DNA of 64,000 nucleotides. Origin: a virus. This document shows, in pieces, positions 1 through 41,528 of this stretch (its first letter is position 1; each line of letters starts with the position of its first letter). Location of the stretch: IMG/VR virus record IMGVR_UViG_3300045988_110999; one strand, given 5' to 3'. The notes beneath the pieces were generated by a model that did no database searches, was not told the origin of the DNA, and saw nothing but the letters and a program-made list of their open reading frames with translations. A program made the translations under genes and the position numbers.

Positions 1-154
1 CTAATGTCCTCTCTCTCATTAACAAATATTAGGTTATAACTAGGTTATTTTACCACATTAGCATCATATATGGAATAGTTTTCGGGAAATTTAGCTTATT
101 TTTTTTATTTCCGGATACAACATATACAACATTAAACACAATAACGTGATTCGC

Positions 155-177
155 GTTGCAGTAAATGTTGCAGTAAA
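155..177. repeat. Tandem direct repeat GTTGCAGTAAA x2, operator-like, upstream of the XRE regulator
   Basis: GTTGCAGTAAA at 155-165 and again at 167-177, in the AT-rich leader of the 291..623 gene. Confidence 0.45.
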
Positions 178-290
178 ATAGAATATTTGTTTGGTATGCT
201 TAATTTTGAGCACACCCCCTGATTGGGTGATTAAAATTTGCCTCTCCTATCCACTTTATGTTATTATTAACTAAAAAAGAGGTGATTAAT

Positions 291-623
291 TTGCCACTAT
301 CATTAGCCCAACGATTAACGAAACTAAGAAAAGACCACGACATGACACAAACAGAATTAGCAAAAAAGATGGGAGTAGGGCAATCCCTCATTTGGAGGTG
401 GGAATCAGGGGAGATAAAGAGGCTTCGCCCAGACAAGGTTGCAAAGCTAGCTGAAATATATGGAGTAAGTGAGGAGTACATAGCTACCGGGATAGATATC
501 GGCAACCTTCCCACTGAGGTTGAAGAGTGGCTCCATAAGCCGGAGAATCGTGAGAGGGTGATAGACTTCTACAAGCGATACAAACTCCTAGAGACCAAAG
601 AGAAATTAGATGATATAAAATAA
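291..623 (+). CDS. XRE/Cro-CI family helix-turn-helix transcriptional regulator
   Basis: ORF track 258..623. 'LAQRLTKLRKDHDMTQTELAKKMGVGQSLIWRWESGE' is a typical XRE HTH. TTG at 291 follows AAAGAGGTGA by 6 nt; ATG at 258 has no SD. Confidence 0.85.
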   Translation: MPLSLAQRLTKLRKDHDMTQTELAKKMGVGQSLIWRWESGEIKRLRPDKVAKLAEIYGVSEEYIATGIDIGNLPTEVEEWLHKPENRERVIDFYKRYKLLETKEKLDDIK

Positions 624-648
624 GAGCCCCAGCGGGGCTCTATTTTTT
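624..648. terminator. Bidirectional rho-independent terminator between convergent genes
   Basis: GAGCCCC-AGC-GGGGCTC stem-loop followed by a T-run, lying between the stop of the + gene (623) and the stop of dnaE (647). Confidence 0.7.
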
Positions 649-3600
649 ATGCCAATTTGGCTTCGGCGAAATCAAAGATTCGATTGTTGCGTACTTTCAT
701 GATATATACATTATGGGCTTTGATGTCTTTGTACCGGTCATTAAAGATGACCAAATCATGAACAGACTTATTATCCCGGACTTTTACGAAGGCCATGTTC
801 TTCCCGGTCTTAGTTTTTCTCCCTTTGACATTCAAGACTTCGTATCCGAAGATATCCACATTATTCACTAAGTCCATCTTGTATTTTGAGAATATATCTC
901 CAAAGCTCATGCCTAATACCTTAGACTCTTCCATCTGTTCATTATACATAGTGGGCGTATATTTAAACTCTCCTTTAGACTTCCTTTTATCTTTTGCCCA
1001 TACAATATATTGTAGCATCTCATCTCTGTTCCCTTTGAATACACCAGCTTTGACTAAGTTACTCAAGACTGTCTTATTCATGTTGATATTGGCTTCCAAA
1101 AACGTTTTGAAGTCTTCCGGGGAGTCTTTGGGAATCTGCGTGTTGCCTATTCCAGAGATACAGTTAAGCCCAAGAATAATATAGGACCCTTCTTCGTCGT
1201 AGTCCGAGTAACAGTTATGATGGGAAAGCTGGGGAGGGAGAATCTTAATCCCCATATGCATAGCTTCAAGAATGTAAGAGGCAAGTTTCGGTTTATCCTT
1301 GCAGTTAGAGTCCAACAAGGAAGCCATGAAGGCCGCTGGGTAATGAGCTTTTAAATAGGCTGTAGCCCATGCTGTCATGCCATAGGCCGCAGAATGGGAG
1401 TTAGAGACGACCAAGCCATTATTTACGACTACGGTATGGTTCGGAGCGGCCATCTCGATATCATAGACATCTTCTATGCCTACGTAGGTGATGCTTGAGA
1501 TTCTGGTTGTAAGCAATTCATATCCATTATCTCCCTTACGTTTTCTTCCCATTTTGTAGTGGGCTTTTTTGTGACAAGAGACGCAGAGCCATGCTAAGTT
1601 TTCTGGGTAATTATTGGTTCTATCACCATTGATGTGATGCATTTCAAAACGCGTATCTCCGTCATAAGCGGTTCCGCACATTTCGCAAGGTTCCTTAGAA
1701 CTAATAGCAGTAGCTCTTGCTGTTTCATAAGCTTCGTAATGACTACCTTCTATTTTCTGGAAACCTCTTTGCCCCTTTTGGGGAAGGTTAGAAGGAGATT
1801 TCCCATCCTTGTAGAGTCTATAGTCATACGAATTTTTCACCATGTTCCCTTTAACATATACCTCATCTCCCACCTTGAGGTCTTTCATGTATTTCATGCC
1901 GGAAGGAGTAGGGATTTTATGAAGGGATGTGCATTTAACGAACTTACCATCTTCGGTTTCTACCTTGTAGACCTTGTTCTTACCGGAGTAGAAAACATTA
2001 ACGATGTCGTTTTTCTTGATTCTATCTCCAGTGATGGATAACGCCTTTCCGTATCCGTAAGTACGATATTTAGATGAGAGGTCTTTGTGACCATTTGCTT
2101 TAGCCCATCCTACATCGTTCTTCGTAAGGTACATTTCTCTGATAGTTAATGGTTTATATTCATTTGCGTCTCTCATAATTATCGTATCTCCTGACAAGCA
2201 GTGGTTAAAACCATAGGCGGCAAAGGTAATAATGTTATCAGTCAGTCTCTTCATCTGGGCTTCTGAGTATCCATTTTTTACCCCTCTCACAATCATATCA
2301 TCGACAGCTGGTTTCATTTCGTCTACCACCTTACGACCAATGATTCGGCGGAGGTTATCGGCCTCCCCAAGGGAATAACCGCATATCTTCCGGGCAATCT
2401 GCATGATTTGTTCCTGATACAGGATGACGCCTTCTGTATCCCGGAGTATAGGTTCTAATTCTGGGATATCGTATACAGTCGGTTCTTGATGGTTACGGCG
2501 GCGGAGGAAAGTCTCTGCCATTCCAGAATCCAACGGCCCAGGTCTACCCAATGCTACAACAGCTGACATGTCTTCTACATTCTTGACATTCATCCTAATA
2601 ATGATACCGGTCATGACATTTGATTCAATCTGGAAGCAACCGCTTGTATCCCCCTTTCGTAGCATGGCCGCAGTTGTCTTGTCGTCTACGGGAATCTTGG
2701 CCACGTCGAGGTCAATGCCGGCACGGTGTTTAGTTTGCTCGATGATATCTAGAGTTTCAAGGCCGAGGATATCAAGCTTCAATAACCCCTGTGCTTCCAG
2801 CTGGTGGAAGTCGTGGCAGACAACCATGTTATCCCCTTGTTTCTCTATAGCTGTCCAGTTACATACATCCTCCGGACTTACCAATACTGCCGAAGCATGG
2901 CATCCATAAGAAATGATGTGGCCACGGAATTTCATAGCCAAGGCCTTCCATTTCTTTTGTAAGGAAGTCTTCTCTGGCATATCTTCGACTATGTTAATAT
3001 TTTTGCTCATCTTGGTATATTCAGCAGGTTTAATAAGCTCCTTGTTTCTACACTCTATAGAGGCATCGTGGTCAGCAAGGCGTTTATTTTCTTCCGCCTT
3101 CTTTCTGTACGAGTCTGTCTTTTTGTACTCACTAACCAAATCCAGATAATGTTTTCCGTTTATCGCCTGTGCGGCTCTTTGTACGGCTGATTTATCTTGG
3201 ACATAGCTGATAGTACGAACCTGATATACTTCCCCATATTTCTCTTTTACGTATTCGATAACGTCGTCTCTTCTAGGAGTAGACACATCAGTATCTATGT
3301 CCGGTGGGGTTACACGTTCCGGGTTGGCGAACCGTTCAAATACGAGGTTATACTTAATAGGGTCCAATTTCGTAATGCCCATGAGGTACGCAGTCAGGCT
3401 ACCAACTACAGAGCCACGTCCTAAACCTGTTGGAATCCCAGCTTCCCTGCAATGTCGAATCATGTCATCAATGATACAGAAGTAATTGAGATAACCAAGG
3501 TCGCTCAGGATTTTGAATTCATGCCGTACCTGTTCGATGTACTTAGCACGATCCGGGTAGTTGCTAATTCCCAAGGCTTTGAATCCTTCGTTACATTTCT

Positions 3601-6331: not shown

Positions 6332-9300
6332 TTACTTCACGAATTCCTGAGCCGTCTTGGACAGGTCCCTGACTTCCTGTGCCGCCGGGCTCTTTGCTTT
6401 CTTCGGAACGGTCTTGACTGAGTTTTCCATAGCTGTTGTATCTTTCGTTTTCAGTAATTTCGCAATATCTCTGTCACTCATACCGTAAATCTTTAATGCC
6501 TCGTAGTTATCCGTATTCGGATTCTTGATATATTCTTTCTTCGCTTGGGACTTACATTCGTTATATTTCTGGGTAGCCAGTTTCATGACGCGGGTAGCAT
6601 CCGAAGAGTTCGTCTCTGCCATCGTCCGGAAACCGAAAACCTTAAGGAGCTGGTCGTAGGGGGTGTATTTCGCTGTGATTTGTCCGTATTTGTTTTCTTT
6701 CTTACCGGTTACAGCTTCTTCAAGAGCACCCAATCTCGGAGCCAGAGACCGAATGATTCCGTTTCCTTGTGCGATATTGGATACGGTCGATACAGTAGGC
6801 CCAAGGTCGAACTGGATAGCATCGCCAAGGCCAATATTACCGGAAAGGTTGATACCAGCCAATGACGGAGCCCCATACAGAGCTACGTTGACCAAGGCTT
6901 TCTTCGCAGAGGAGCCACCGGCCCAGTTAATCATACCTTTCTTCAAAGCCATGACAGGGCTGTGTCCCGTCGTCTTATCGAAGATGTCGTCTACTAGATT
7001 AGCACAAGGCATACCCAAAGCGCCAGCCATGATGAACATGGGAACGAGGAACCGGATATTCTCTTCTTTTGTATTGTGGAGTATAAAGTTCAACGTGAAC
7101 AGTGGATATTTCTTGAATTGGAGGAGGAGTTTACCTGTTACCCCGGCTTCGGTCATAGCTAACGGAGAGTCTGTTACCGAGTAGTTGAAGTTCGTTTCTG
7201 TAACCAAGTCTTTTGTTTTGTTGAATACAAATTCTTTCCGAACACTTTCCGTTGTAGGCTTAGGGGCTTTAAAAGGATAATGGTTCTGTCTAGCTCGTTC
7301 TTTCTTCGTCTGCCATGAAGTAATAGCTTCGTTCAGCATCATCTTCTTTTCGTCGTGAGTGAGGGCTTTGAAGTCATCCATGGCTTTCAGGTAGCCACCG
7401 ATTGCCGTTGCTTTACGCGCCCACTTATCACCAACGTTAAAGAACCACATAGACTTGTCTGTAAAGTCTTTGGCCGATTTGCCGAATAGGATTTTCTTAT
7501 CAAAGACACCCGTAGGACGACCGAGGATTTCCGAGTCGATAGCTACGCTTCTTTCGTTGATTCCGATATAGTCATAAAGCTCTTTCCATTTAGCATCGTT
7601 TTTCGATCCGGTTGCTTCTTTGAGACCCGTCCGGAAGTATTTAGACATACCGACGAACTTGTTACCACCGAGTTTTGCGTTGGCGTTCAAGACCTGAAAA
7701 GCCTGTACAGCCAGTGAAGCCGGTCGGAACAAACCAAGTTTCAAGAGGTTCTGTAAAGACAGCGTGTCTTTGGCAAGGCCCGTGTAAAGGTTATGACCGT
7801 ACCGTCTGCGGAGCAGGGAACCTATACCTGTCGGGTCTTTTTCTGCGAGCAGATTCATGTAGTCGTTAATCATCCGGTCGAGGGCTGTAACGGAAGTCGG
7901 GCGGTGATTAGCTTCGATGTACGTCTTTAAGAATTTCTGTTCGTTCGTCGTGGCTTCTTCCCGGATGTCTTTGTGGTACTTGCTCGTGTAGTAGGCTGTA
8001 GCTTCTGCGTAGAACTTCGCTTTACTGATGAAGTTGCCGGAGGTGATGAGGTAACGATATACCGAGTCTGCTACGTTCTGGCTGTAACCGCTGGCTCCGG
8101 AACGCTTCTGGAAGAACGGGTTGAACTGTTGTTTCATATTGGCACTGTTAATGATATTATTCAGTTCATCTTGGGAGATGGTAGCGTCCTTCTTCATCTT
8201 CTGGAGCTTTTTGTACAGACCCGTTACCCGAATCTGGGACTGGAGCTTTTTGACATAATTGTCATGGGCGGCACTGCCTGTATTACTCTTGTACCGGTTT
8301 ACCTTTTCGATATGGGCCATAACATCCTTGACAGCGACCGTATGATGTTCCTTGAACAGGGAATTGAATACCCTTTTGAGCGTTTCGTTATAGTTACCTG
8401 TATCATTGTTCGATTCACTGACGGAGATTAACCCTTCATCGTTCAGCTGTTTAAGCTGGTCTTCCGTCATCCGGTCGACCTTAGCCAATCTATCTCCGTG
8501 AGCCATAGCGTTGATAGGATTGATTTCTGCCCAGTAAGCTTCCTGCCCAGCTCGATTCAGTTCTTTTACTTTCTTAGAGGCTTCGGAGGCGTTATAGAAG
8601 CTGGCAGTGCGGACAAAGGTCTTAGTATCTTTATCTTTTATCCAGACGACATAAGGGAGGTGGATTTGCGGGAAATAACCGTTAAGCTTCTTCGGGAGCT
8701 TGTAGTTGGCCCCGGATTCTTTTGCGGCCTGTACAGACGTTTCGTAGACCTTATCCATCATATCCCGGTACTTCATAAAGGAATTCATGACGTTATCCAC
8801 CTGGGATGACTTCATCGGCTTATCCGAAAGGGACCGAATCATGGAAACATAAGCTTCTTTTTCGTGGACTTTTGCGTATTTCTGAGCAGCAGCCTCGGAT
8901 TTGAAAGCGGCACTGCCTTTGGGAAGAGCGAATACCGTGAATCCTTTGCCGAAACCAGCGTTTTCGTTTTCTTCCGATTCCTGAATCATCTTTGACAGAC
9001 GATATTTACCGGAGTTGCGGATTTCCTGCATCTTCTTGAGGGCTTCGGGAGCGCTGTCGTAGTGTTCGATAAATGCGTCGTGACGGACCGCAAGGTGGAT
9101 TCCATCGTCGAGGTTGATGACTTGCATCGGGTCTCGGTGCATTTCATTGGCTTTGAGGACGAGGGAGTCGAATACTTTCCGTTCGTCTTTGTCGAGGCCT
9201 TTGAATACGTCTAAGAATTTCTGAGAGTAATCACCAACGAACTTTTCCATCTTGCGGCGGGCTCCGTCTGCTAACCGGTAGATAGGCATACCATCGGGGA

Positions 9301-12300
9301 AGTATTTTTTAAAGATATGAAGGGGGTCTTCAAATTGGCGTTGAAGGATACTCATGCGCTCTTTGCCGGGCAGGACACCGGCGGCGTACAGGGCCGCTCT
9401 TTGAGCTGTTTCTTCGTGAGTTGGGATACCTACCTTGTGTAGTTGTTTGTCGATACGGTTTTTGAGAGATAAAGCGTCTGAGGAGGGGGTGTTCCTATTT
9501 TCAATAAAGTTGAGAAAAGCTTTAACAGCCTTATCTGTGAAAGTACCATTTGAGAATGGTTTTAGAACCTTCGCTTTTTCCAAGATAGAGGCTCTAGCAG
9601 AGCTCAATGTTCCAGCTCCGTCGATGGCTTTGTTTGCCATATTGATAATTCTGCCTTCTACACCTTTTCGCTGCGATTTGTATTGAGGAGATTCTAAAGA
9701 TAATTTAAGCTGGGATAAAGTTTTAGCTACAAAAAGTTCATCATACAACTCTCTATCTTTTCTCAATGAATTTTGTAAAGTTTTGCTTCTTGATATTTTA
9801 TCGCATACGTAGTCAATGAATTCCGGATTTATTATAGCATGGTCGTATACAAGCATTTTCCAACTATTAGTAAATCCATCACCGTCTCGAAGTTGTTTAA
9901 TCAATTTATTTATATATTTAACTTCAAAATCTTTTAGCGTGTCATTCTCTTTATCGACGAAATTATTAGACGTGATATAATTCATCCCGTATTCTTTATC
10001 GCCTAATCCCCGTTCAATAGCGGCGTGGAGAGAGTGAATAGTTTCATGGAGTATAGTAGGTGTATTTTTATCCCCGGATAATGCGTCTTGGAAGATTCTA
10101 ATTACGTTGTATTCGGAGTAAGTTCTGCCGAGAGCTCCAGTCTTTTCCTTTTGCCCATCATAAACAAACACGGTTGCCATATCGTCAAGAGCTTCCGCAA
10201 TTTTCGACTGCAACCGTGGTGGTAAATCCTCGAAGGAATCATTTATTAATTTGTTTAAAGTGGGGCCGTCAATATTTACCCCTTCTGGAGTGGCCAAATG
10301 GATGGCTTTCTTTAGTTTGTTGCCAAGCTTGGTTAATCTATATTCGGGTCCAAGCCCCCCACCGGCTTCATGTACTTGTCCAGAAATTTTCTGTCCCTTT
10401 TCCTGATTTTTTTGCCTACTTCTTCCTGCGTCATTCCTTTTGGGAGGGTAAGAATTCCGCTGCACCACATCCCCCTCCAAATGCTCGGGTCTGTTACCCC
10501 CTCTGGCATCGGAGGTAGCTTCGTCGGTCTGTACATTCCCATCTTCTCCTTTCACTGTATGTCCATCCGCTAGGAATTGTTCCTGGTCTTCCTTACTAAG
10601 TCGGTTGAAAATATCCTGAGATGTATCATCCGGGAAGAAAGACCGAGAAGCACCTGTAACATGGACTTCATTTTCCTTTGTAACCTTAATGTTATCTGGT
10701 TCTGTATCTATATTATAGTAGTCTGCGAGATAATCCGCAATATCCTGTTTATCGGCATCCTTTAATTTAACTTTATCCCCACCGAAGGTTTCAATTTCCC
10801 CTTTTGGAATTTTAACATCCATGTCAGAAACAGAAGAAGTTACCATTTCATCTTTATATTTGTAAGACAGTTGATTTGGAGTAGCTATTCTTTCTTCTTT
10901 GGTGTTTACTATATATTTCCCTTGATTATTTACCGTTTCTCTATCTTTGCTCTCCGTTGCTTCGGCTTTGGTCTTTGCATTCTCTGTGTCTGCTTGCTTC
11001 TTGTATTTTTCGTATTCAGCCTTAGCCTTACTTACTTCTTCTTGGGTGTATTTGCCAGATTTGACGAGGTTCTGAAGAGCTTTGCCACCAGGGAAATTCA
11101 CGGAATTAGCTACCTTGGTAGGACCGTCGTTAACCCAGCTAATAATGTCAGGTACGAGATGCTCTTTGACATTCCCTCTCTGTACATACATACCTTTGTA
11201 CTTATCCTTACTAAGGGTGGCGGCACGTTCCCCGTATTTCTTTTCTAGTTCTTCGTGATGAAGGAAATAGTGAATAGGGTCGTTATTAGCCAGGTGCTTA
11301 CCACGGATTTCCTTAGCAAGAGCCTTACCGGCGGAATGAACAGCTTTTATTTCCTCTTTTGTCCCTTTTGATTTAGCTTCGTTTATGGTAGTTCTTGTCT
11401 TTTTAGCCTTTGTAGCCGGGGAGAGTTCTTTAACAGGTTTCTCTTTTGGTTTGGATTCACTTTCTCCACCTTGAGCTTTCGACATGATATCCAACAAATC
11501 TTGAGAGCTACCTTCAACCGGCTTGAGTATTGTTCTTTGAGCTTCTTTTTTGTTTTCGTAGCTCCTCTTTGCCCGTTCTCTATTCTTTTCGTCGGATACC
11601 TGCTTTGCCTGTCTATCTACTTCGGCTATCTTCTGTTCGATGTTCTGGATGTGGTCCAGAGGGTCATATTTATCCTGTGTACGGGCGTTGACGTAGGAGG
11701 TAACAGCTTCCTTGACGGATTCACGATACTTCTTAGGGAACTTGGAGAGGAGTCGGTTCATACCGAGACCTTTCTTGTAGTTAAAGAAGTTTTCTACGAA
11801 GTTATGGAGCTCTGTGACAGCCTCCTTGTCCCTACCTTTGTTGGCATACTGGGACAGCTTTCGAGCGAACGGTGATTGAATCGTTATTTCGTGTGATTTA
11901 TCGACACGCTGTTTTTCAAAACCACGGACGGCATCTACTTCAGCAATCTTATCCCGTTTGGCAATCTTGGCATTGGCCATCTCGATCTGATGGCTCTGTT
12001 CCTTAACGGACAGGCCTTCCATCTTCTTAGCATCGAGTGTAACCCCCCTGTTTTTAGAGCTGGAGTTAATGTGCTGTACCGTATCCATGTGATTCTTTTT
12101 GCTGACGATAGCTTGTGTCTTATCCCTATTTTCGGTAAGAGCTTTCCCGGAGAGAGCTTTAATCTGATTACGGATTTTAGGGGGAACTTCCCCACCGGCG
12201 CTTTTAGTTATAACCTGTTTCACGTCGTTAGGAAGAGAATCGAAATTACCATCGGAGGTGTAATATTTAGAATGGACGCCATTCTTAGCAAAGTCGTCCT

Positions 12301-14371
12301 TGATAGTCTGTTCTGTTGCCTTTTGTTTCCCTTTCTTTTGGGTTTCGTAGGAACGTGTTGCGGCGGCAGAACTTGCTCTCAGGGTCTTAGAGATACCGGC
12401 GTCGTCCGGGGTAAGGCCTAATTTATTAAGCCGTGCTTTACCAGCGTCAGAAATATCTCCACCCTTGGGTTTGTAGAAGTCGCTATGAGTCCCATTCTGT
12501 TTGATATCCTCTTGGATAGTGTTTACGGCGGTAGCTACGTTCTTCGTATGCTGTTCTTTATCAGCTTTACGGTTCGCTACTTCCTGTACGTGGATTTCCT
12601 TGCGCTGTGCCGGGAAGAAACCGGTGTTCGGAGAGATGCTATTGGCATTATCTAATTCCTGTTGGGAAATAGGAAGGCCCAGTTCATTTTTCTTTTGGAT
12701 GAGAGCTTGAGCCGTAGCCTGACGGTAACGGTCGTTATTTCGTTGTTGGAGGATAGCGGCTACTGGCTGTGCGCTCTTATTGTCGGAGATGATAGGGATA
12801 TTCGGCGATTCTATCATAGCTTTAACGAGGTCATCCCGTTCCGGGCCCGTCATCATTGCTGTCCCATGTACTGGATTATAGCCAAGGACGCTCGCTTCCC
12901 CACTATCAATCAGGTTAGCAATCGCCTGATTAGCTGAATACTGGTCGTCGCTCTTCCCGTAAGCTTCCTGTTCAGCTAAATCATACTCCGTTGGGTTATT
13001 CATCTTGTCCATGAGCTGTTGCGTGAATTCTTTAGGGCCTGTTGGTACAGAAGGTTCACTGACTGGTTGAGTAGCTGGGGCTTCCTGAGAGTTCATGGGG
13101 ATGGCATCTAAATCCTGCTGAGTAAGTTCAGTTTCGTCAACGGGGATATTTTCTGTAACCGGAGCTTCGTCTTGAATAGACTCTTCGACATTATGGGTAT
13201 CATCCTGTGCGTGAACGGCATCATCAATCGGACTGGGAACAACCTTTTCTTCACCAGTAGTGTCTACCCGTCTTGCTCTACGATGGCCGATACCACCAAG
13301 GAGGCCCATCGGAATCATGCCCATACCAGCCATAAACATCTGGTCCTTGGATTCATCACCCATTTCAATAGGATTGTAGTTGATATCTTCCCCGGTAAGA
13401 GCATTATTCTGGAATTCATTCTGTAAGCCTTCTGTATAGGATTCCATAGCCATACCCGGGACACTATGAGTAAGGAGTCGAGTAGAATATCTCTTGTCCG
13501 CAAAGTCTGCTACCTTGCCCCCAAAGTCAGACAGGGAGCCGAGAAGTCCTTTCCCAGCTTCCTGTTCGGTTGATTCTGTCGCTCTACTAAGGAGTCTCTT
13601 AGGAGCGTTTGCGGCTCCTTTCAACATGCTCATAGATACGGCATTAGATGCTACCGACAATCCAATATTATCCATGAAGTCAGTATCCATAGCATTACGA
13701 GCTTCTTCTTGTGTAGCCCCGTTCTGAATAGCCTGATTATATGTATCGCCTGCTTCTGATGCGGCATCTAAATAACCACCAGCGATGTCACCTGCGATTT
13801 TTGGAGCGGCACTGAAAGCTGTTCTAGCAATCCTTGCCCCCGTACCCAATTCTCCAACATCAGACCCTACGGCAATAGCCTTCTCTAAGGTGGAAGCTGT
13901 CTTTGCCAATCTTGCGGCTCTGGCCGCTTTTAAACCAGCTCCTACTACCGCACCACCAATACCGCCGGTAGCGGCGCCGACGAGAGCAGTGGCGGCCATG
14001 TCAGGGGCGGAAGAACCAACAAGATTGAAGGCGGTGTAAGCAAGGCCGTTTGGGTCTGTGATGAAATCAAAGAGACTATCGTTGCGGGTGAACTGCCGTC
14101 TTGCCTGTCTACCTTGGGCAAGAGCATCCCCAAAATCCTCGAGACCTTGTCCGAACCCGAATTCCTGATTCATATAAGTACCGATAGAACCGAGACTTGA
14201 CCCCAAACCATTCATAGCGCCGTTAATGGCACTATCTAAGAATCCACCATCACCGAATGAATCATAAGTCCCTCCATCATCCGGGGCAATGACACTATCG
14301 AGGTATTGGTCATTTGCGGCGGCTCTATCGTATAAGGCCTGAAGGTAATCTTCTGTAGTTCTTCCTGCCAT
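6332..14371 (-). CDS. Giant (2679 aa) multidomain virion/ejection protein, polyvalent-protein-like, with an HExxH zincin motif and TM-rich termini
   Basis: Uninterrupted ORF with AGGAGGG SD. Gly/Ala-rich hydrophobic N-terminal region; 'TILHETIHSLH' (HETIH at 10034-10048); C-terminal hydrophobic region 'FLVPMFIMAGALGMP...ALYGAPSLAGINLSGNIGLG'. Confidence 0.75.
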   Translation of the reverse strand: MAGRTTEDYLQALYDRAAANDQYLDSVIAPDDGGTYDSFGDGGFLDSAINGAMNGLGSSLGSIGTYMNQEFGFGQGLEDFGDALAQGRQARRQFTRNDSLFDFITDPNGLAYTAFNLVGSSAPDMAATALVGAATGGIGGAVVGAGLKAARAARLAKTASTLEKAIAVGSDVGELGTGARIARTAFSAAPKIAGDIAGGYLDAASEAGDTYNQAIQNGATQEEARNAMDTDFMDNIGLSVASNAVSMSMLKGAANAPKRLLSRATESTEQEAGKGLLGSLSDFGGKVADFADKRYSTRLLTHSVPGMAMESYTEGLQNEFQNNALTGEDINYNPIEMGDESKDQMFMAGMGMIPMGLLGGIGHRRARRVDTTGEEKVVPSPIDDAVHAQDDTHNVEESIQDEAPVTENIPVDETELTQQDLDAIPMNSQEAPATQPVSEPSVPTGPKEFTQQLMDKMNNPTEYDLAEQEAYGKSDDQYSANQAIANLIDSGEASVLGYNPVHGTAMMTGPERDDLVKAMIESPNIPIISDNKSAQPVAAILQQRNNDRYRQATAQALIQKKNELGLPISQQELDNANSISPNTGFFPAQRKEIHVQEVANRKADKEQHTKNVATAVNTIQEDIKQNGTHSDFYKPKGGDISDAGKARLNKLGLTPDDAGISKTLRASSAAATRSYETQKKGKQKATEQTIKDDFAKNGVHSKYYTSDGNFDSLPNDVKQVITKSAGGEVPPKIRNQIKALSGKALTENRDKTQAIVSKKNHMDTVQHINSSSKNRGVTLDAKKMEGLSVKEQSHQIEMANAKIAKRDKIAEVDAVRGFEKQRVDKSHEITIQSPFARKLSQYANKGRDKEAVTELHNFVENFFNYKKGLGMNRLLSKFPKKYRESVKEAVTSYVNARTQDKYDPLDHIQNIEQKIAEVDRQAKQVSDEKNRERAKRSYENKKEAQRTILKPVEGSSQDLLDIMSKAQGGESESKPKEKPVKELSPATKAKKTRTTINEAKSKGTKEEIKAVHSAGKALAKEIRGKHLANNDPIHYFLHHEELEKKYGERAATLSKDKYKGMYVQRGNVKEHLVPDIISWVNDGPTKVANSVNFPGGKALQNLVKSGKYTQEEVSKAKAEYEKYKKQADTENAKTKAEATESKDRETVNNQGKYIVNTKEERIATPNQLSYKYKDEMVTSSVSDMDVKIPKGEIETFGGDKVKLKDADKQDIADYLADYYNIDTEPDNIKVTKENEVHVTGASRSFFPDDTSQDIFNRLSKEDQEQFLADGHTVKGEDGNVQTDEATSDARGGNRPEHLEGDVVQRNSYPPKRNDAGRSRQKNQEKGQKISGQVHEAGGGLGPEYRLTKLGNKLKKAIHLATPEGVNIDGPTLNKLINDSFEDLPPRLQSKIAEALDDMATVFVYDGQKEKTGALGRTYSEYNVIRIFQDALSGDKNTPTILHETIHSLHAAIERGLGDKEYGMNYITSNNFVDKENDTLKDFEVKYINKLIKQLRDGDGFTNSWKMLVYDHAIINPEFIDYVCDKISRSKTLQNSLRKDRELYDELFVAKTLSQLKLSLESPQYKSQRKGVEGRIINMANKAIDGAGTLSSARASILEKAKVLKPFSNGTFTDKAVKAFLNFIENRNTPSSDALSLKNRIDKQLHKVGIPTHEETAQRAALYAAGVLPGKERMSILQRQFEDPLHIFKKYFPDGMPIYRLADGARRKMEKFVGDYSQKFLDVFKGLDKDERKVFDSLVLKANEMHRDPMQVINLDDGIHLAVRHDAFIEHYDSAPEALKKMQEIRNSGKYRLSKMIQESEENENAGFGKGFTVFALPKGSAAFKSEAAAQKYAKVHEKEAYVSMIRSLSDKPMKSSQVDNVMNSFMKYRDMMDKVYETSVQAAKESGANYKLPKKLNGYFPQIHLPYVVWIKDKDTKTFVRTASFYNASEASKKVKELNRAGQEAYWAEINPINAMAHGDRLAKVDRMTEDQLKQLNDEGLISVSESNNDTGNYNETLKRVFNSLFKEHHTVAVKDVMAHIEKVNRYKSNTGSAAHDNYVKKLQSQIRVTGLYKKLQKMKKDATISQDELNNIINSANMKQQFNPFFQKRSGASGYSQNVADSVYRYLITSGNFISKAKFYAEATAYYTSKYHKDIREEATTNEQKFLKTYIEANHRPTSVTALDRMINDYMNLLAEKDPTGIGSLLRRRYGHNLYTGLAKDTLSLQNLLKLGLFRPASLAVQAFQVLNANAKLGGNKFVGMSKYFRTGLKEATGSKNDAKWKELYDYIGINERSVAIDSEILGRPTGVFDKKILFGKSAKDFTDKSMWFFNVGDKWARKATAIGGYLKAMDDFKALTHDEKKMMLNEAITSWQTKKERARQNHYPFKAPKPTTESVRKEFVFNKTKDLVTETNFNYSVTDSPLAMTEAGVTGKLLLQFKKYPLFTLNFILHNTKEENIRFLVPMFIMAGALGMPCANLVDDIFDKTTGHSPVMALKKGMINWAGGSSAKKALVNVALYGAPSLAGINLSGNIGLGDAIQFDLGPTVSTVSNIAQGNGIIRSLAPRLGALEEAVTGKKENKYGQITAKYTPYDQLLKVFGFRTMAETNSSDATRVMKLATQKYNECKSQAKKEYIKNPNTDNYEALKIYGMSDRDIAKLLKTKDTTAMENSVKTVPKKAKSPAAQEVRDLSKTAQEFVK

Positions 14372-28699: not shown

Positions 28700-28765
28700 G
28701 TACTTACCTCCTTTGGAAGTGTTTTAAAAACACTTTACAAAGCTAAAGCATTTATAATGCTTTCC

Positions 28766-29299
28766 TTATACATAGAATTGCATCGGACGTTCGATAACCG
28801 GGTAGTTATCTGCCGAGCTTAGTTTGTCCACTTCATCAGAAATCAAACCGTCTAAAGCTGTCTTCCCAAAGGTTCCGTCGATAAGGCCTGTTGCATACCG
28901 AATGAATAACTGTAGGAAGATACTCGGAAGGTCAATCTCATCTTCCATCGTAGACACTTCCGGGATGACATAGAAGTAATCCATAGTCCCCGATTCATCT
29001 ATATAGATAACATCTTTTACAATGCGATATTCACCGTCATAGGCCTTAGTCTCCCCTTCCTTGGTTACATAGATGGCTTTCATCTTAGCGAAATCGTCAG
29101 GAAGGGTAGCCTTCCCATTCCGTTCCCGAAGCTTCGTTTCTTTTACAACCCAGTTAGAATCACGATTAATCAGAATCATATTTAGGACTCTCAGCACCGA
29201 GTTAATGGCTTCAATTAATTCTGGATCGCTATGTTTTCTGGCATACATTTCGTCGAGATTAAATAGGACAGCGATAGCTACTTGTTTAACCTCAATCAT
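28766..29299 (-). CDS. Hypothetical head/neck protein
   Basis: ATG 29299 overlaps the upstream TGA (ATGA coupling); the track start at 29353 lacks an SD. Confidence 0.55.
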   Translation of the reverse strand: MIEVKQVAIAVLFNLDEMYARKHSDPELIEAINSVLRVLNMILINRDSNWVVKETKLRERNGKATLPDDFAKMKAIYVTKEGETKAYDGEYRIVKDVIYIDESGTMDYFYVIPEVSTMEDEIDLPSIFLQLFIRYATGLIDGTFGKTALDGLISDEVDKLSSADNYPVIERPMQFYV

Positions 29300-35332: not shown

Positions 35333-35396
35333 TCTATCACCTCCTTCGGAAACGACTTTAGTCGTTTCACGATGCTAAAGCAAGTCTTACTTTCCA

Positions 35397-35672
35397 TTAG
35401 AGCTGTCGATTTATGATGGTATCGGGTTTAAAAGCCGACCCGATGATTTCTCCGTTATCCAAAAGGATAAGGGAACGCTTTGCCCGGCCTCTGGTTGCGT
35501 CAAAAAACATACCAGCATCCCGGCGTCTCTTATATAATCGTTCTACCATATTCCCGATAAACGGCATGATACAGGTGACTCGGGCCGTATTCACTACGAA
35601 ACCGAAGCCGATATCCATGAACACACCGTTTTCAGGGTTGATTTTCACTCTTTCTGTTGTTGCTGACTTCAT
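35397..35672 (-). CDS. RemA/DUF370-family DNA-binding protein homologue
   Basis: 'IGFGFVVNTARVTCIMPFIGNMVERLYKRRRDAGMFFDATRGRAKRSLILLDNGEIIGSAFKPDTIINR' aligns without gaps to the RemA pattern IGFG..NR...I.P......R......G...DAT.GR..R......D...I.SA..P.T...R. Confidence 0.8.
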   Translation of the reverse strand: MKSATTERVKINPENGVFMDIGFGFVVNTARVTCIMPFIGNMVERLYKRRRDAGMFFDATRGRAKRSLILLDNGEIIGSAFKPDTIINRQL

Positions 35673-35840: not shown

Positions 35841-35915
35841 TGGCGGCGGTACTTAGAATCGAACTAAGACTAGCAGAGTCAAAGTCTGCTGTACTGACCG
35901 TTATACGATACCGCT
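35841..35915 (-). tRNA. tRNA-Gln (anticodon UUG)
   Basis: Cloverleaf by eye: anticodon stem GCAGA/TCTGC with loop CTTTGAC; T-arm CTTAG-TTCGATT-CTAAG; encoded 3' GCCA. Confidence 0.8.
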
Positions 35916-35918
35916 ATG

Positions 35919-35992
35919 TGGCATGGGTACAAGGACTCGAACCAAGATTGACGGTTTTGGAGACCGTAGTCTTTCCATTAGACGATACCCAC
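35919..35992 (-). tRNA. tRNA-Trp (anticodon CCA), with two U-U mismatches in the T-stem
   Basis: Acceptor GTGGGTA/TACCCAT; anticodon stem ACGGT/ACCGT with loop CTCCAAA; T-arm CTTGG-TTCGAGT-CCTTG is imperfect; encoded CCA. Confidence 0.6.
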
Positions 35993-35993
35993 A

Positions 35994-36081
35994 TGGCAGA
36001 GGAGGTGGGATTTGAACCCACGGTGCTGCTACGCACAGCTGTTTTCAGGACAGCCACCTTAATCCACTCGGACACTCCTCT
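35994..36081 (-). tRNA. Type II tRNA-Ser (anticodon UGA) with a long variable arm
   Basis: Acceptor AGAGGAG/CTCCTCT; anticodon stem GCTGT/ACAGC with loop CCTGAAA (C at position 33); variable arm GTGC-GTAGCA-GCAC; T-arm GTGGG-TTCAAAT-CCCAC; encoded CCA. Confidence 0.7.
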
Positions 36082-36085
36082 AATC

Positions 36086-36159
36086 TGGTTGCGGGGGATA
36101 GAGTCGAACTATCGTAACTGGGGAATGAGCCCAGCGTCCTACCTTTAGACGACCCCGCC
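36086..36159 (-). tRNA. tRNA-Met (anticodon CAU) with initiator-like features
   Basis: Anticodon stem CTGGG/CCCAG (three G-C pairs next to the loop) with loop CTCATTC; 1-72 is a G-A mismatch; T-arm GATAG-TTCGACT-CTATC; encoded CCA. Confidence 0.65.
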
Positions 36160-36837
36160 ATGCATCGGTTCTTTTCTCTCTTCGTGGAGCATCTCACTTC
36201 AAGAACCGGAAAGCGGTCGCCCTCGCAAGGGCGTGTACATCAAAAACCAGCGTCGATATCCACACCGTAGGACGATGCACGTGGTCCTTCCTAATATCCT
36301 ACAAAACTAAGCCAGGCACAGTCGAAGCTATCTAGAATCGTCTCCGCTGTGTACCCGGTATCCAAACATCGGATACTCGGAAACGCTTTTTTCAAAGCGT
36401 TTAGCAAAGCTAAAGCATTTAGAGTGCTCTCCATATGTTTCAATTCCTACTCACTAACCGGGAATTAGGCATATTCTTTTGGGAGCCTGCCTAGGCTACC
36501 GACCAACACCCAGAGCGTGTTGAAGTCTTTTCACGCGCCGTTACGAAACCCTCTATACATAGGGAACTTCACGGTATGGTTTTTCCGGTGATTTCTGACC
36601 GGGCCAGCATCAAAATAGTCTTTCCAGTATTAACAGGCCGACACTGTACCTGCCCCGGAGTTTAACGTCCTCCTGAGCGACGAGATATGGATGTTTAACG
36701 TCCTCCCGGACATCACCCCCTTTAGGTCATTTATGGCAACCTTTCTTTTTCAGAGGGCCTCACCTCCATCCTGAAACGTTTCAAAGAAACGTTTTGCGGT
36801 GCTGAAACACTTCGTGTTTCCCACTCGGAGTTATTTT
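36160..36837 (-). ncRNA. Candidate large structured non-coding RNA between terL and the tRNA array (GOLLD/ROOL-like context)
   Basis: ~680 nt with no ORF of 60 aa or more in any frame, in a gene-dense operon. More than 12 consecutive stem-loops with A-rich loops when read on the minus strand. Internal 14-nt direct repeat. Confidence 0.55.
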
Positions 36838-39294
36838 TTACATAGAACCGGCCAACGGGATTTCGTCTGTGACGACCTTCTCGTAAGAAGCGACCGGAGC
36901 AAAATAAATCTGGTCCTGATAGGCAAGTGCGTCAATCAGGTCATCATGCAAGGACTTCGGGAAAGCAAGGAATTCGCTTTCCAATTCCCCAAGAAAGGAC
37001 GCTCCCATCGGGAACCATACGGTGCCAGCTTTGAACCGGGGCTGTACGGCTTTGATACGCTCTTCTTTCTTTTCCTTGGCTTCCAAATCCTTGACCGTGA
37101 ACCAGATATTCCTCTTTGGCATTTCCTTTTCTATGAAGTGGGATAACGCCGCTTGGTAAGCGACCTTTTCCATACCCACATAGACAGGATGGTATCGAGT
37201 GACCGCCTCGAAGATAGCGTCTATCGTCTGGGTCGGATCGAACCTCCCATACTTTATATCCAATACGAACCAATGGTTTTCACTATTGACCCCCACAGTG
37301 CAGACTACGGTATAGTCCGCGGTTTCTTTCTGGGAAATAGCTAGGTCTACCGTAGTGAAGATGTTCATATCCTTCACATCAAGCTCTTCTTGCTTGTAGT
37401 ATTTGAAGTATTCTTTCTTGAACAGCTGGGTTTCCGGGGAAATAGCAATACACATCTTTTCCCGTTCCCATACATCCAGATTCCCGATTCGTCTAAAAGC
37501 TTCCCTTTCCGCTTTTATCTCTTCGGAGCTCCATCTTTCGGGCCATACACTGTTTCCTTCTGCGTCTAGGATAGGGATACGGACACCGGTAAACTTCAAA
37601 TCTTTCTGGTTCTCTATGACTCGTTCTATCAGGCATTTTTCACCCAGATTGTTCCCGATCATGAAGATTCTCGTCTTCTTCCCTAAGAACAATACGTCGG
37701 ACAGGAACCATTCCCAGTCCCCTTCCTGTACGGTATCTGACTTCGCATCTTCCAAGTCTTGTGGGTCGTCAATCAGGACAATAGACGGTCGGGCATCGTG
37801 AACGTTCAAACCACGGATAGCAGCCCCTTTGCCGTAAGCTTCAAAACGGACCCACATCTCTTCGTCATCTTTATCTTTTACGATGACCTCGAAACCGTTC
37901 TGGGACTGTTCTACGATACGTACCAGGTTCATGGATAGTAGCTCATTATTGAGCCATTCATCCTCAATTTCCTTTAACCGCTTACTGGCAGCTCTCTGCG
38001 TAGCCATGATAAAGACTACGTACTGCCTATCCTTGGAAGGATATGTCAGGCAGTGCATCGGGAAGGCTCTTAGTACGACGCCGCTATTATGGGTAACGAT
38101 GCAGCCAGTACCACATAAAAACAGCCCCGTAGGGCTGTCTACCTTGATACACATGGTGGGGACGGACTCACATTTAGAGACTTTCTTGACACTCCTCATC
38201 AGAGTGCGTTTATCCTGAGTATCACAAATCAAATCCCTCTTCCTTTTTAACTGAGGGAATTTAACTGTGGTCTTGAACGACACATCATAATGTGGCTTAC
38301 ATTCTTTGCCGTAGAGCTTAGATGGTTTCTTTATAATAGTAGCCTTAATACCTAAGCTTCTGACTAAATATAAAGTCCCCATAGCCAATCTTTCATTGGT
38401 GTTTGTGAAAGTAACCGTCCCAGCCTTGCTACCAGCCTTGGCAATCGTACCGTCACTATCAATGAGACCGGCCAATAATTGCCACCTGTTTTCCTCGCTG
38501 TCGTAGTAATACTCTTCCGGGATGTGCTTGTCGTATATCAACCCAAGGGATTTAAGCTCTTTCAAGAACCCTCCTTGGAACTTTATCGTCATTGCCGTTT
38601 TATCTTTGCGGCATGTCTTGGTTCCCCAGTCGATGTTCAGGAATGTCTCTTCAAAATCTTCCCCACCGCAAGTGATTTCGGCTGCTTTTGAATGACCATC
38701 TCCAAGCCATAACCCCAAATCATACGGAGAAATGATATGTTCTTTCCGAGGGTATTGTAAGGGCATAGCTAATGGTATACGGTATGCCTTTTCTTGATAT
38801 CCTTTTTTAGGTTTTCCCAAATCCTGCTTTGCGTACATCTCCAGTGTGGTTACGATATTCCATCTACGTTTGTGCTTGTCCCATACGCTCCACAGATGTT
38901 CTGCATCAGCAGTGATTTCCTCCCCGTCGTCAAATTCGACTTTGAAGCAAGGATGATCGTAAAAAATCTCGGAGGTGCTACCAACTAACACTGGGTTCCC
39001 ATTCTCATCAAATACGTAGTCCCCCGGCTTGATTTCCCCCATCAGCTTATATCCACTAGGGGTCGGGATAGGGGTGAAAATCGAGATTGCTTTTCCTGAC
39101 TCACGAAAGCCCTCTACAGCGTAGTGGTGCTTGCCTTTTAACAGTATCTTTCCCCATTCCTCTTGGAATGAAGGGGTCTTTACTTCATCTTCGACGGGGA
39201 GGAATACTCTTCTGAATAACATAAGGTCATCTTTGGCGTCACGGAACAGCTTCGCCATCATTACTTTCTTGTCCATATCTCTCTCCCCTTTCAT
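36838..39294 (-). CDS. terL: Terminase large subunit, interrupted by an intein in the Walker A P-loop
   Basis: 'VEGFRESGK|[intein]|SGVVLRAF' restores the G....GKS P-loop. Nuclease half includes 'DLAISQKETADYTV'. ATG 39276 (behind GGGGAG) is a likelier start than 39294. Confidence 0.9.
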   Translation of the reverse strand: MKGERDMDKKVMMAKLFRDAKDDLMLFRRVFLPVEDEVKTPSFQEEWGKILLKGKHHYAVEGFRESGKAISIFTPIPTPSGYKLMGEIKPGDYVFDENGNPVLVGSTSEIFYDHPCFKVEFDDGEEITADAEHLWSVWDKHKRRWNIVTTLEMYAKQDLGKPKKGYQEKAYRIPLAMPLQYPRKEHIISPYDLGLWLGDGHSKAAEITCGGEDFEETFLNIDWGTKTCRKDKTAMTIKFQGGFLKELKSLGLIYDKHIPEEYYYDSEENRWQLLAGLIDSDGTIAKAGSKAGTVTFTNTNERLAMGTLYLVRSLGIKATIIKKPSKLYGKECKPHYDVSFKTTVKFPQLKRKRDLICDTQDKRTLMRSVKKVSKCESVPTMCIKVDSPTGLFLCGTGCIVTHNSGVVLRAFPMHCLTYPSKDRQYVVFIMATQRAASKRLKEIEDEWLNNELLSMNLVRIVEQSQNGFEVIVKDKDDEEMWVRFEAYGKGAAIRGLNVHDARPSIVLIDDPQDLEDAKSDTVQEGDWEWFLSDVLFLGKKTRIFMIGNNLGEKCLIERVIENQKDLKFTGVRIPILDAEGNSVWPERWSSEEIKAEREAFRRIGNLDVWEREKMCIAISPETQLFKKEYFKYYKQEELDVKDMNIFTTVDLAISQKETADYTVVCTVGVNSENHWFVLDIKYGRFDPTQTIDAIFEAVTRYHPVYVGMEKVAYQAALSHFIEKEMPKRNIWFTVKDLEAKEKKEERIKAVQPRFKAGTVWFPMGASFLGELESEFLAFPKSLHDDLIDALAYQDQIYFAPVASYEKVVTDEIPLAGSM
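38086..39090 (-). mobile_element. Intein (335 aa) with Ala1 and the W/C/T triplet (class 3 type) plus a LAGLIDADG homing endonuclease domain
   Basis: Block A 'AISIFTPIPTPSG'; block B 'DAEHLW'; block F 'TMCIKVD...GLFLCGTG'; block G 'CIVTHN|S'; LAGLIDADG motifs 'LGLWLGDGHS' and 'LLAGLIDSDGTI'. 1005 nt, in frame. Confidence 0.85.
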
Positions 39295-41428: not shown

Positions 41429-41528
41429 ATGTTTGTGGTTTGGTCACGGCCACGTAAAAAGTAGCGCGACTGCCAGCGGAAACGTCAAAGACGTTTAGCG
41501 ATGTATAAGAACTTTGTTCTTCACATAT

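Follow-up and report, generated by a model that had tools for sequence, protein, structure and literature searches.

Covarying hairpin modules and a dispersed repeat in the non-coding segment between terL and the tRNA array of a phage

ROOL (RF03087) and GOLLD (RF01998) are among the largest RNAs of bacteria and phages; they have no known function and are linked only by their place beside phage tRNA islands. ROOL contains six multistem junctions along with three pseudoknots and keeps a steady length of ~581 nucleotides (nt); the conserved 3' domain of GOLLD is large and pseudoknotted, whole GOLLD RNAs are often longer than 800 nt, and one that was studied by cryo-electron microscopy (cryo-EM) adjoins a Met-tRNA; RNAs of both classes form closed homo-oligomers (RNA nanocages), as cryo-EM shows. 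The 64,000-nt stretch of viral DNA analysed here (the window; IMG/VR record IMGVR_UViG_3300045988_110999) contains a 678-nt segment (36160-36837) between the large terminase gene terL and a tRNA array, which the initial annotation had proposed, from its hairpins and its surroundings, as one large ornate RNA that might belong to these classes or to a new one. The segment is non-coding; its conserved part (X) carries covarying hairpins in the minus-strand sense and gains and loses whole modules among close relatives, and much of the rest consists of phage-specific sequence and copies of a dispersed repeat. With moderate confidence, we interpret the segment as a composite, fast-changing, structured non-coding leader of the tRNA array, with a putative role in RNA stability or processing.

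Other described systems bear on this interpretation. Leaders and spacers of tRNA operons are trimmed by RNase P and RNase Z. The polypurine stabiliser of phage SP82 is one 5' stabiliser of mRNA. The STAB-SD of Bacillota, an orphan Shine-Dalgarno (SD) sequence, is another element that acts as a 5' stabiliser (PMC4113751), and the PeSL (promoter-early stem-loops) of T4-type phages are stem-loop cassettes that drive insertions and deletions (PMC2839356, PMC4122927). Like ROOL, X is phage-borne, non-coding, several hundred nt long, on the strand of the tRNA array and tightly packed against it; unlike ROOL, it shows local hairpins only, varies from ~220 to 680 nt, is not matched by the ROOL model even when E<=10 is allowed, and lies upstream of tRNA-Met rather than downstream as does the ROOL of a sister phage (L046, described below). 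Like GOLLD, X occurs in phages near a tRNA island and is conserved in its 3' part but variable upstream of it; however, it has no match to the GOLLD model, and its constant 3' part is made of two small hairpins (P_d and P_e).

The window belongs to a gut-metagenome contig of 65,984 bp (ENA ERZ28572813). About 60 loci of related phages, from human gut, pig gut and other samples, were gathered by means of the C-terminal part of TerL, a neighbouring open reading frame (ORF) of 128 amino acids (aa) and the members of the TerL cluster. In all relatives, terL is followed by a variable spacer and then by tRNAs, and beyond the tRNAs, where the contig reaches, by a small ORF, a RemA-like gene and the portal gene. 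Parts of the segment recur in ~15 distinct relatives whose TerL is 88-98% identical, as modules 70-86% identical in DNA. X comprises modules M1, M2, M3, M4 and M6, ~340 of the 678 nt; the unconserved remainder holds two copies of the repeat, SD-like sequences without a start codon and a ~190-nt stretch seen in this phage only, and about half of the 678 nt is phage-specific or dispersed repeat. The features of the segment are as follows, with minus-sense position 1 at window position 36837.

Minus-sense positions 1-113, minus strand: two-hairpin repeat and orphan SD, in window-type relatives only.
36770-36822, minus strand: repeat copy A, GAAACAC-GAA-GUGUUUC followed by AAACGUUUC-UUU-GAAACGUUU, right past the terL stop codon; aligns with the other copies and with insertions in L042.
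36758-36767, minus strand: orphan SD-like GGAGGUGAGG, with no usable start codon; conserved in L025, L042, L043 and L066-L080.
Minus-sense positions 114-183, minus strand: M1, found in all relatives.
36689-36723, minus strand: M1a, an extended SD-like AAAGGGGGUGAU, predicted to be partly paired (GGGUG/CAUCC) and stacked on the hairpin AUGUCC-GGGA-GGACGU.
36653-36677, minus strand: M1b, a hairpin with conserved loop GACGUUAAA and variable stem.
Minus-sense positions 184-225, minus strand: M2, found in some relatives; a hairpin and then the motif UGGAAAGACU (36617-36654).
Minus-sense positions 226-257, minus strand: insertion of 32 nt (36581-36612) with the hairpin CCGGU-CAGAAAUC-ACCGG (36585-36602), in this phage only and a gap in every relative.
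Minus-sense positions 258-305, minus strand: M3, found in some relatives; nested helices CCGU/ACGG and CCCU/AGGG (36538-36575).
Minus-sense positions 306-356, minus strand: M4, found in some relatives; hairpin GAC-UU-CAACAC...GUGUUG-GUC, then hairpin AGCCU-AGGC-AGGCU (36482-36527).
Minus-sense positions 357-545, minus strand: M5 (36293-36481), in this phage only; several hairpins including repeat copy B (36376-36431), with an unrelated stretch at this place in L006-type relatives.
Minus-sense positions 546-678, minus strand: M6 (36160-36292), the 3' domain, in nearly all relatives; P_b enclosing P_c as one long hairpin, then P_d (GCCCU-UGCG-AGGGC), P_e (CGGUUCUU...AAGAACCG) and a 6-nt tail abutting tRNA-Met.

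The related phages keep several of the hairpins in the region through compensatory changes, which supports the folded RNA proposed in the initial annotation. In M1 (n = 8), 95.9% of alignment cells are paired (88.1 ± 1.5% in shuffles) and five pairs are changed on both sides (2.6 ± 0.9), a result reached by 6 of 500 shuffles; the corresponding values are 96.5% (90.8 ± 1.3%), seven pairs (3.7 ± 1.1) and 3 of 500 shuffles for M3/M4 (n = 7), and 96.5% (94.5 ± 0.5%), five pairs (1.8 ± 1.0) and 2 of 500 shuffles for M6 (n = 10). All modules together contain 17 pairs changed on both sides, in stems that are 96-97% paired, and sliding the 3' partners by 1-3 columns lowers pairing to 34-50% and leaves 0-3 such pairs (0-1 in M6). 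Invariant G·U pairs in the minus sense, for example at M6 columns 5/116, 22/66, 29/59 and 31/57, would be A·C mismatches on the plus strand, and therefore the selected structure is that of a minus-sense RNA, in the sense of terL and the tRNAs, as had been claimed from the initial inspection.

The compensatory changes are distributed over small helices. Two stem pairs of M1a are changed on both sides (AUGUCC/GGACGU vs AGGGCC/GGCCCU), and the stem of M1b appears as GGAG/CUCC, AGC/GCU, CCGUA/UACGG or CCGGG/CCCGG. M3 has three pairs changed on both sides (for example CCCU/AGGG vs CCAC/GUGG), and M4 has four, with 98-100% of cells paired and the stem variants CAACAC/GUGUUG, CAGUGC/GCACUG and CAGUAC/GUACUG. 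P_b, a helix of 8 bp, is 100% paired with three compensatory pairs; P_a, a possible closing helix of M6 and the one candidate for a three-way junction, is weak and is broken in L066 and L067. Application of RNAalifold to full-length L006-type sequences supported local hairpins only: the long-range helices that it proposed were rejected, their columns never varying and some sequences containing mismatches, and X shows no pseudoknot and no firmly supported multistem junction. Judged from the alignments, each module of X is a small local stem-loop kept under selection at the RNA level.

All of the hairpins listed in the initial annotation are found in the sequence, as is the exact 14-nt direct repeat (36660-36673 and 36693-36706), but two of them compete with helices supported by covariation: GCGTG/CACGC clashes with CAACAC/GUGUUG of M4, and AGGAC/GTCCT clashes with P_b. 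Another three (GAAACAC..., AAACGTTTC... and AAACGCTTT...) are copies of the dispersed two-hairpin repeat. The minimum free energy (MFE) of the segment is -220 kcal/mol on the minus strand vs -193 kcal/mol on the plus strand, and, against 100 dinucleotide shuffles, its folding energy has z = -2.13 for the minus strand, where two of the 100 shuffles do equally well, and z = -2.56 for the plus strand. A control window of coding sequence within terL reached -2.98, so that the z-score does not discriminate and was set aside as evidence; because the control folds better, the density of hairpins alone does not set the segment apart, whereas covariation does.

A protein-coding gene or pseudogene was ruled out. 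Consistent with the initial annotation, the segment is an ORF-free gap bounded by the terL stop codon and by tRNA-Met, both on the minus strand; the longest ORF fully within it encodes 50 aa (36291-36443, minus strand, TTG start), the small ORFs of the segment have no match in Pfam or PHROGs, and the lengths of indels among relatives, such as 13 nt in M6, are not divisible by three and shift the frame.

The segment does not behave as a single large RNA of fixed fold would: modules are gained and lost among phages with identical TerL, and only local hairpins covary. L025 (TerL 96% identical) lacks M4 and M5, L042 (98% identical) lacks M2 to M5, L006 lacks M3, L001 lacks M2 and L043 keeps M1 only. 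M2 is present in L025, L029, L006, L044 and L059 and absent from L001, L026, L042 and L066-L080; M3 is also absent from L059. M5 is missing from L042 and L066-L080 as well as L025, and has no homology to the stretch at the same place in L006-type relatives, which was rejected as a selected RNA, being one long hairpin with no compensatory changes. Within M6, P_a to P_c are missing from L071 and L074; an unrelated insert of ~140 nt replaces M2-M5 and P_a to P_c in L076, and the same insert lies inside an otherwise complete M6 in L059. Among contigs that encode one and the same TerL protein (P0125), the gap measures 305, 460 or 471 nt and differs in content, and contigs with an intein-bearing TerL have a different mosaic of 442 nt. 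M1a is the sole module present in every X-bearing relative including L043, and P_d and P_e accompany it in all the others, being kept in every relative with any M6. The length of X ranges from ~220 to 680 nt among near-identical phages.

Such extreme indel mosaicism among phages with identical TerL is what would be expected if the segment were mostly non-functional filler in a recombination hot spot, composed of selfish or neutral mini-hairpin repeats and leftovers of lost genes or tRNAs, in which shared stretches reflect recent common ancestry and compensatory changes result from template-switch repair of near-palindromes. In L042 the insertions are bordered by direct repeats, and the deletion has its junction between M1 and M6 at a TAGG common to both; the scaffolds of L070 and L071 contain runs of N here, a hint of difficult assembly; selfish elements crowd the neighbourhood (inteins in terL and portal genes, and a group I intron in terL); the folding-energy z of the segment is no better than that of the coding control; and GGAAAGACU motifs resemble the D-loop region of the tRNA-Trp of the phage. 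This explanation is nevertheless unlikely in our view: the modules, at 70-86% DNA identity, hold all of the both-side changed pairs in stems nearly completely paired; template-switch repair would yield perfect palindromes, but strand-specific G·U pairs persist; M1b keeps its loop although the stem changes; and degenerate tRNAs were rejected, since a search of the segment with the Rfam tRNA model gave no match at E<=10 and short D-loop-like motifs only were seen.

The 14-nt direct repeat, of which the first copy (36693-36706) lies in M1a and the second (36660-36673) in M1b, raises the question of a site acting at the level of DNA, either a pac site or a replication origin, with GGAGGACGTTAAAC motifs bound by the RemA-like protein or by terminase. 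The segment adjoins terL, a conserved RemA-like gene is nearby, the exact copies are spaced by 33 nt (about three helix turns), and M1, which bears them, is the most conserved module. On the other hand, the first copy is altered in L006-type relatives (GGACG to GGCCC) and the facing strand of its hairpin changes with it, so that the constraint is on pairing and not on repeat identity; the G·U pairs are specific to one strand; insertions of 45-55 nt in L042 and L066 break the spacing; and no skew or break in composition marks an origin. A DNA-level site is therefore highly improbable.

The dispersed repeat, ~55 nt long, consists of a first hairpin, then UUAGC..G, then AAACG-stem-loop-stem-CGUUUC. 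At least five copies are present in the window (28722-28769, 35335-35400, 36376-36431, 36770-36822 and ~41479-41520), the pattern AAACG...CGTTTC occurring six times vs 0.6 expected, and the stems covary between copies. Three copies are located directly upstream of an SD, which is followed by a gene at 28.7 kb and 35.35 kb and by none at 36.8 kb. The former two lie between a stop codon and the SD of the next gene (the layout ahead of the portal gene, 35337-35347), in spacers of ~65 nt, from which the statement that genes elsewhere are 0-15 nt apart proves inexact. Copy A is not present in the close relative L025; M1 of L042 and of L066 contains inserted copies, and the L042 insertions are flanked by direct repeats of 5 nt and 9 nt. 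The hairpins of the repeat have no U-tracts. The function of the repeat may lie in RNA processing or stability, or it may serve as a cassette for recombination.

The two SD-like sequences of the segment, GGAGGUGAGG (36758-36767) and AAAGGGGGUGAU (36712-36723), have no start codon 5-9 nt past them, and the reading frames past the related SD-like motif differ between relatives.

Comparison with known RNA families did not place the segment among them. Rfam 15 detected no family other than tRNA in the whole window at gathering score, and nothing within the segment when 36000-37000 was searched at E<=10, GOLLD and ROOL included; the identity with GOLLD or ROOL that the initial annotation had suggested checking with covariance models is thus not borne out, and relatives L059 and L004 likewise have no GOLLD match at E<=5. 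The ROOL model performed as it should on a positive control (L046:4693-5272, 217.7 bits against a gathering score of 99.1). There is no sequence similarity between X and the L046 ROOL, and the candidate that the segment is a decayed ROOL was rejected, the local alignment scoring 21 where shuffles score 20.3 ± 2.1. Comparison of the region with 50,697 phage records by blastn found nothing; a 17-mer scan of IMG/VR and an 18-mer scan of GTDB genomes gave chance matches only, beyond two known contigs; and the portal protein is <=31% identical to that of any cultured phage. A covariance model of M6 matches X-bearing loci only, with no further copy in the window or in distant relatives. Having no match in Rfam, the modules M1a, M3/M4 and M6, together with the two-hairpin repeat, may be annotated in phages as candidates for new RNA motifs of narrow spread, to be added to the many thousands that phage genomes already give.

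The locus type can host large ornate RNAs, as had been supposed from its context of a phage and nearby tRNA genes, here a four-tRNA array on the strand of terL. The sister phage L046 (TerL 88% identical) has a full-length ROOL (RF03087, model positions 1-574) in the adjoining slot of this array, which comprises ten tRNAs in L046; the RNA lies 6 nt past tRNA-Met and 13 nt before tRNA-Ser, behind a TTGACA-17-TAAAAT promoter placed just past terL; ROOL is also present in L047, L048 and L049. None of the loci examined has both X and ROOL, and many relatives have neither. More distant relatives have clear promoters of the type TTGACA-17-TATAAT right past terL.

This setting invites the reading of X as a dedicated phage RNA of a new class, acting in trans and linked to the tRNA array, with a job like that of ROOL or GOLLD, of which M1 and M6 would be the core and M2 to M5 variable outer domains. 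X shares with those RNAs its phage location, its tRNA strand and its adjacency to tRNA-Met, and ROOL, not found together with X in any of the loci examined, occupies the adjacent slot in the sister phage; every conserved module covaries; the conserved 3' domain and variable upstream part recall GOLLD; insertions occur at hairpin tips in the manner of expansion segments, L044 and L059 sharing one position in M6; and a helix closing the 5' and 3' ends can be drawn. We regard a dedicated RNA as doubtful: no long-range helix, pseudoknot or firm multistem junction is supported and P_a is broken in two relatives; the length of X varies from ~220 to 680 nt, with whole modules, half of M6 included, lost in L071, L074, L076 and L080; X is limited to one narrow clade, and many relatives do without both X and ROOL; and a generic dispersed repeat makes up some of the 678 nt. 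The more specific proposition that X is an undescribed class of modular phage RNA linked to tRNA arrays, excised by tRNA-processing enzymes beside an initiator-like tRNA-Met and sharing the purpose of ROOL and GOLLD, is quite unlikely; if it were true, related phages that carry X, ROOL or neither at one hot spot would constitute a natural swap series from which the task of these RNAs could be worked out.

The main value of the locus is that natural series. This clade of gut phages fills the hot spot between terL and portal variously, with a full ROOL, a leader of hairpin modules, a short promoter and small motif, or almost nothing, and the series permits one to ask whether large tRNA-adjacent RNAs are machines in their own right or, instead, selected leaders and spacers of tRNA transcripts that have overgrown. 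The segment also illustrates that extended tracts rich in hairpins and free of ORFs beside tRNAs are not necessarily single ornate RNAs: the covariation seen here supports small modules, independent of each other and interspersed with a dispersed intercistronic repeat.

As a leader of the tRNA array, the segment is probably transcribed from the minus strand together with terL and the tRNAs. Its 3' end would be defined by RNase P, which is expected to cut at the 5' end of tRNA-Met, 6 nt past P_e. X resembles the leaders of tRNA operons in where it ends, 6 nt ahead of the mature 5' end of tRNA-Met, a spacing that is the same in all relatives; ordinary tRNA leaders are short and unstructured, whereas X is several hundred nt long with covarying hairpins. 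The hairpins and orphan SDs may act as processing and stability elements, with 5' stabilisers blocking RNase J1 and 3' hairpins blocking exonucleases, a role for which STAB-SD is the analogue: like STAB-SD, GGAGGUGAGG and AAAGGGGGUGAU are strong SD-like sequences in untranslated RNA with no usable start codon, although the one in M1a is predicted to be partly base-paired.

Gain and loss of modules may be driven by recombination between short repeats, by analogy with PeSL. The two-hairpin repeat resembles PeSL in being a short stem-loop cassette of intergenic spacers, clustered in hyperplastic regions and marking the edges of segments inserted, deleted or replaced between close relatives. It differs in having neither promoter nor U-tract terminator, whereas PeSL comprise a strong sigma-70 promoter and a terminator hairpin; there is no sequence relationship, and the phage group is a different one.

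Several observations weigh against a leader with a general role in stability or processing. The covariation statistics rest on 7-10 closely related sequences, and the shuffle counts overstate significance because the structures were derived from the same alignments that were tested. The 5' and 3' ends could be joined by a closing helix, AAGGGGGU/ACCGCUUU. The minus strand of 36160-36837 has no promoter-like site, and the search of the window found neither a promoter nor a terminator for the unit. The analogy with STAB-SD requires RNase J1 in the host, which the strong SDs of the phage suggest only indirectly, and the predicted pairing of the SD-like sequence in M1a (GGGUG/CAUCC), a helix that is unproven because its pairs never vary, would fit poorly with free binding of the 30S subunit. 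Finally, conservation by compensatory changes at 88-98% TerL identity points to a function more specific than generic stability.

The genes on either side of the segment are as follows.

36838-39294, minus strand: terL, large terminase of 818 aa, with Pfam Hom_end, LAGLIDADG_3 and Terminase_6C; its stop codon is the upstream edge of the segment.
35841-36159, minus strand: tRNA array Met(CAU)-Ser(UGA)-Trp(CCA)-Gln(UUG), from ARAGORN and the Rfam tRNA model.

TerL contains a LAGLIDADG intein (aa 69-403; window 38086-39090, minus strand) with the junctions GK|AISIF...THN|SGVV, and the TerL proteins of close relatives without an intein are 477-480 aa long. In one relative, a group I intron (RF00028, 78 bits; L032:4395-4725) is present in the 3' part of terL. 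The portal protein is 717 aa here and 1058 aa, with a faint LAGLIDADG match, in L066-L068, L070, L071, L075-L077, L079 and L081, and the length and match of the longer proteins suggest a portal intein. The RemA-like gene (35397-35672, minus strand; PF04025, E = 2e-16) is located just upstream of the portal gene. It had been described as inserted between terL and portal together with the segment; however, it adjoins the portal gene in every relative whose contig reaches far enough, and is therefore a core gene of the phage group. Because no small terminase gene is obvious, a role of the RemA-like protein in DNA packaging is conceivable. Elsewhere in the late region, a giant ORF of 2679 aa occupies 6332-14371 on the minus strand.

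By direct reading, tRNA-Met (36086-36159, minus strand) resembles an initiator tRNA, in that G1·A72 atop the acceptor stem is unpaired, three G-C pairs form the foot of its anticodon stem and the CCA end is encoded; it heads the array in most relatives that have several tRNAs. The motifs at the end of M2 (UGGAAAGACU, 36616-36629) and at the start of M4 (GUGAAAAGACU, 36524-36544) resemble the D-loop and D-stem of the tRNA-Trp of the phage, 13 of 14 nt matching 35967-35988. This resemblance hints that some modules may derive from decayed copies of tRNAs.

In distant relatives, a small motif occurs just upstream of the first tRNA or of a small ORF (L002:4650-4714, L004:3270-3340, L011:4670-4750 and L046:4520-4612), which consists of an extended orphan SD, AAAGGAGGUGAU, and a hairpin around GAACUUUGUAUCC...GAGUUUGG. 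Its closing stem covaries (UGUCC/GGACA vs UCUCU/AGAGA), and it is not coding, since the reading frames across it differ between relatives.

Between tRNA-Met and tRNA-Ser, the slot filled by ROOL in L046, X-bearing L006-type relatives have an extra 250-385 nt (L006:5584-5830, L044:5497-5880 and L059:4084-4468) with no annotated ORF and no Rfam match. Relatives of the same type have, between terL and X, an ORF of 128-132 aa with the motif HEMLH (L006:4637-5035 and L044:4535-4921), which has a weak SprT-like match (E = 0.014) and the JGI label 'predicted metal-dependent peptidase'; at its place the window has the two-hairpin repeat and the orphan SD only.

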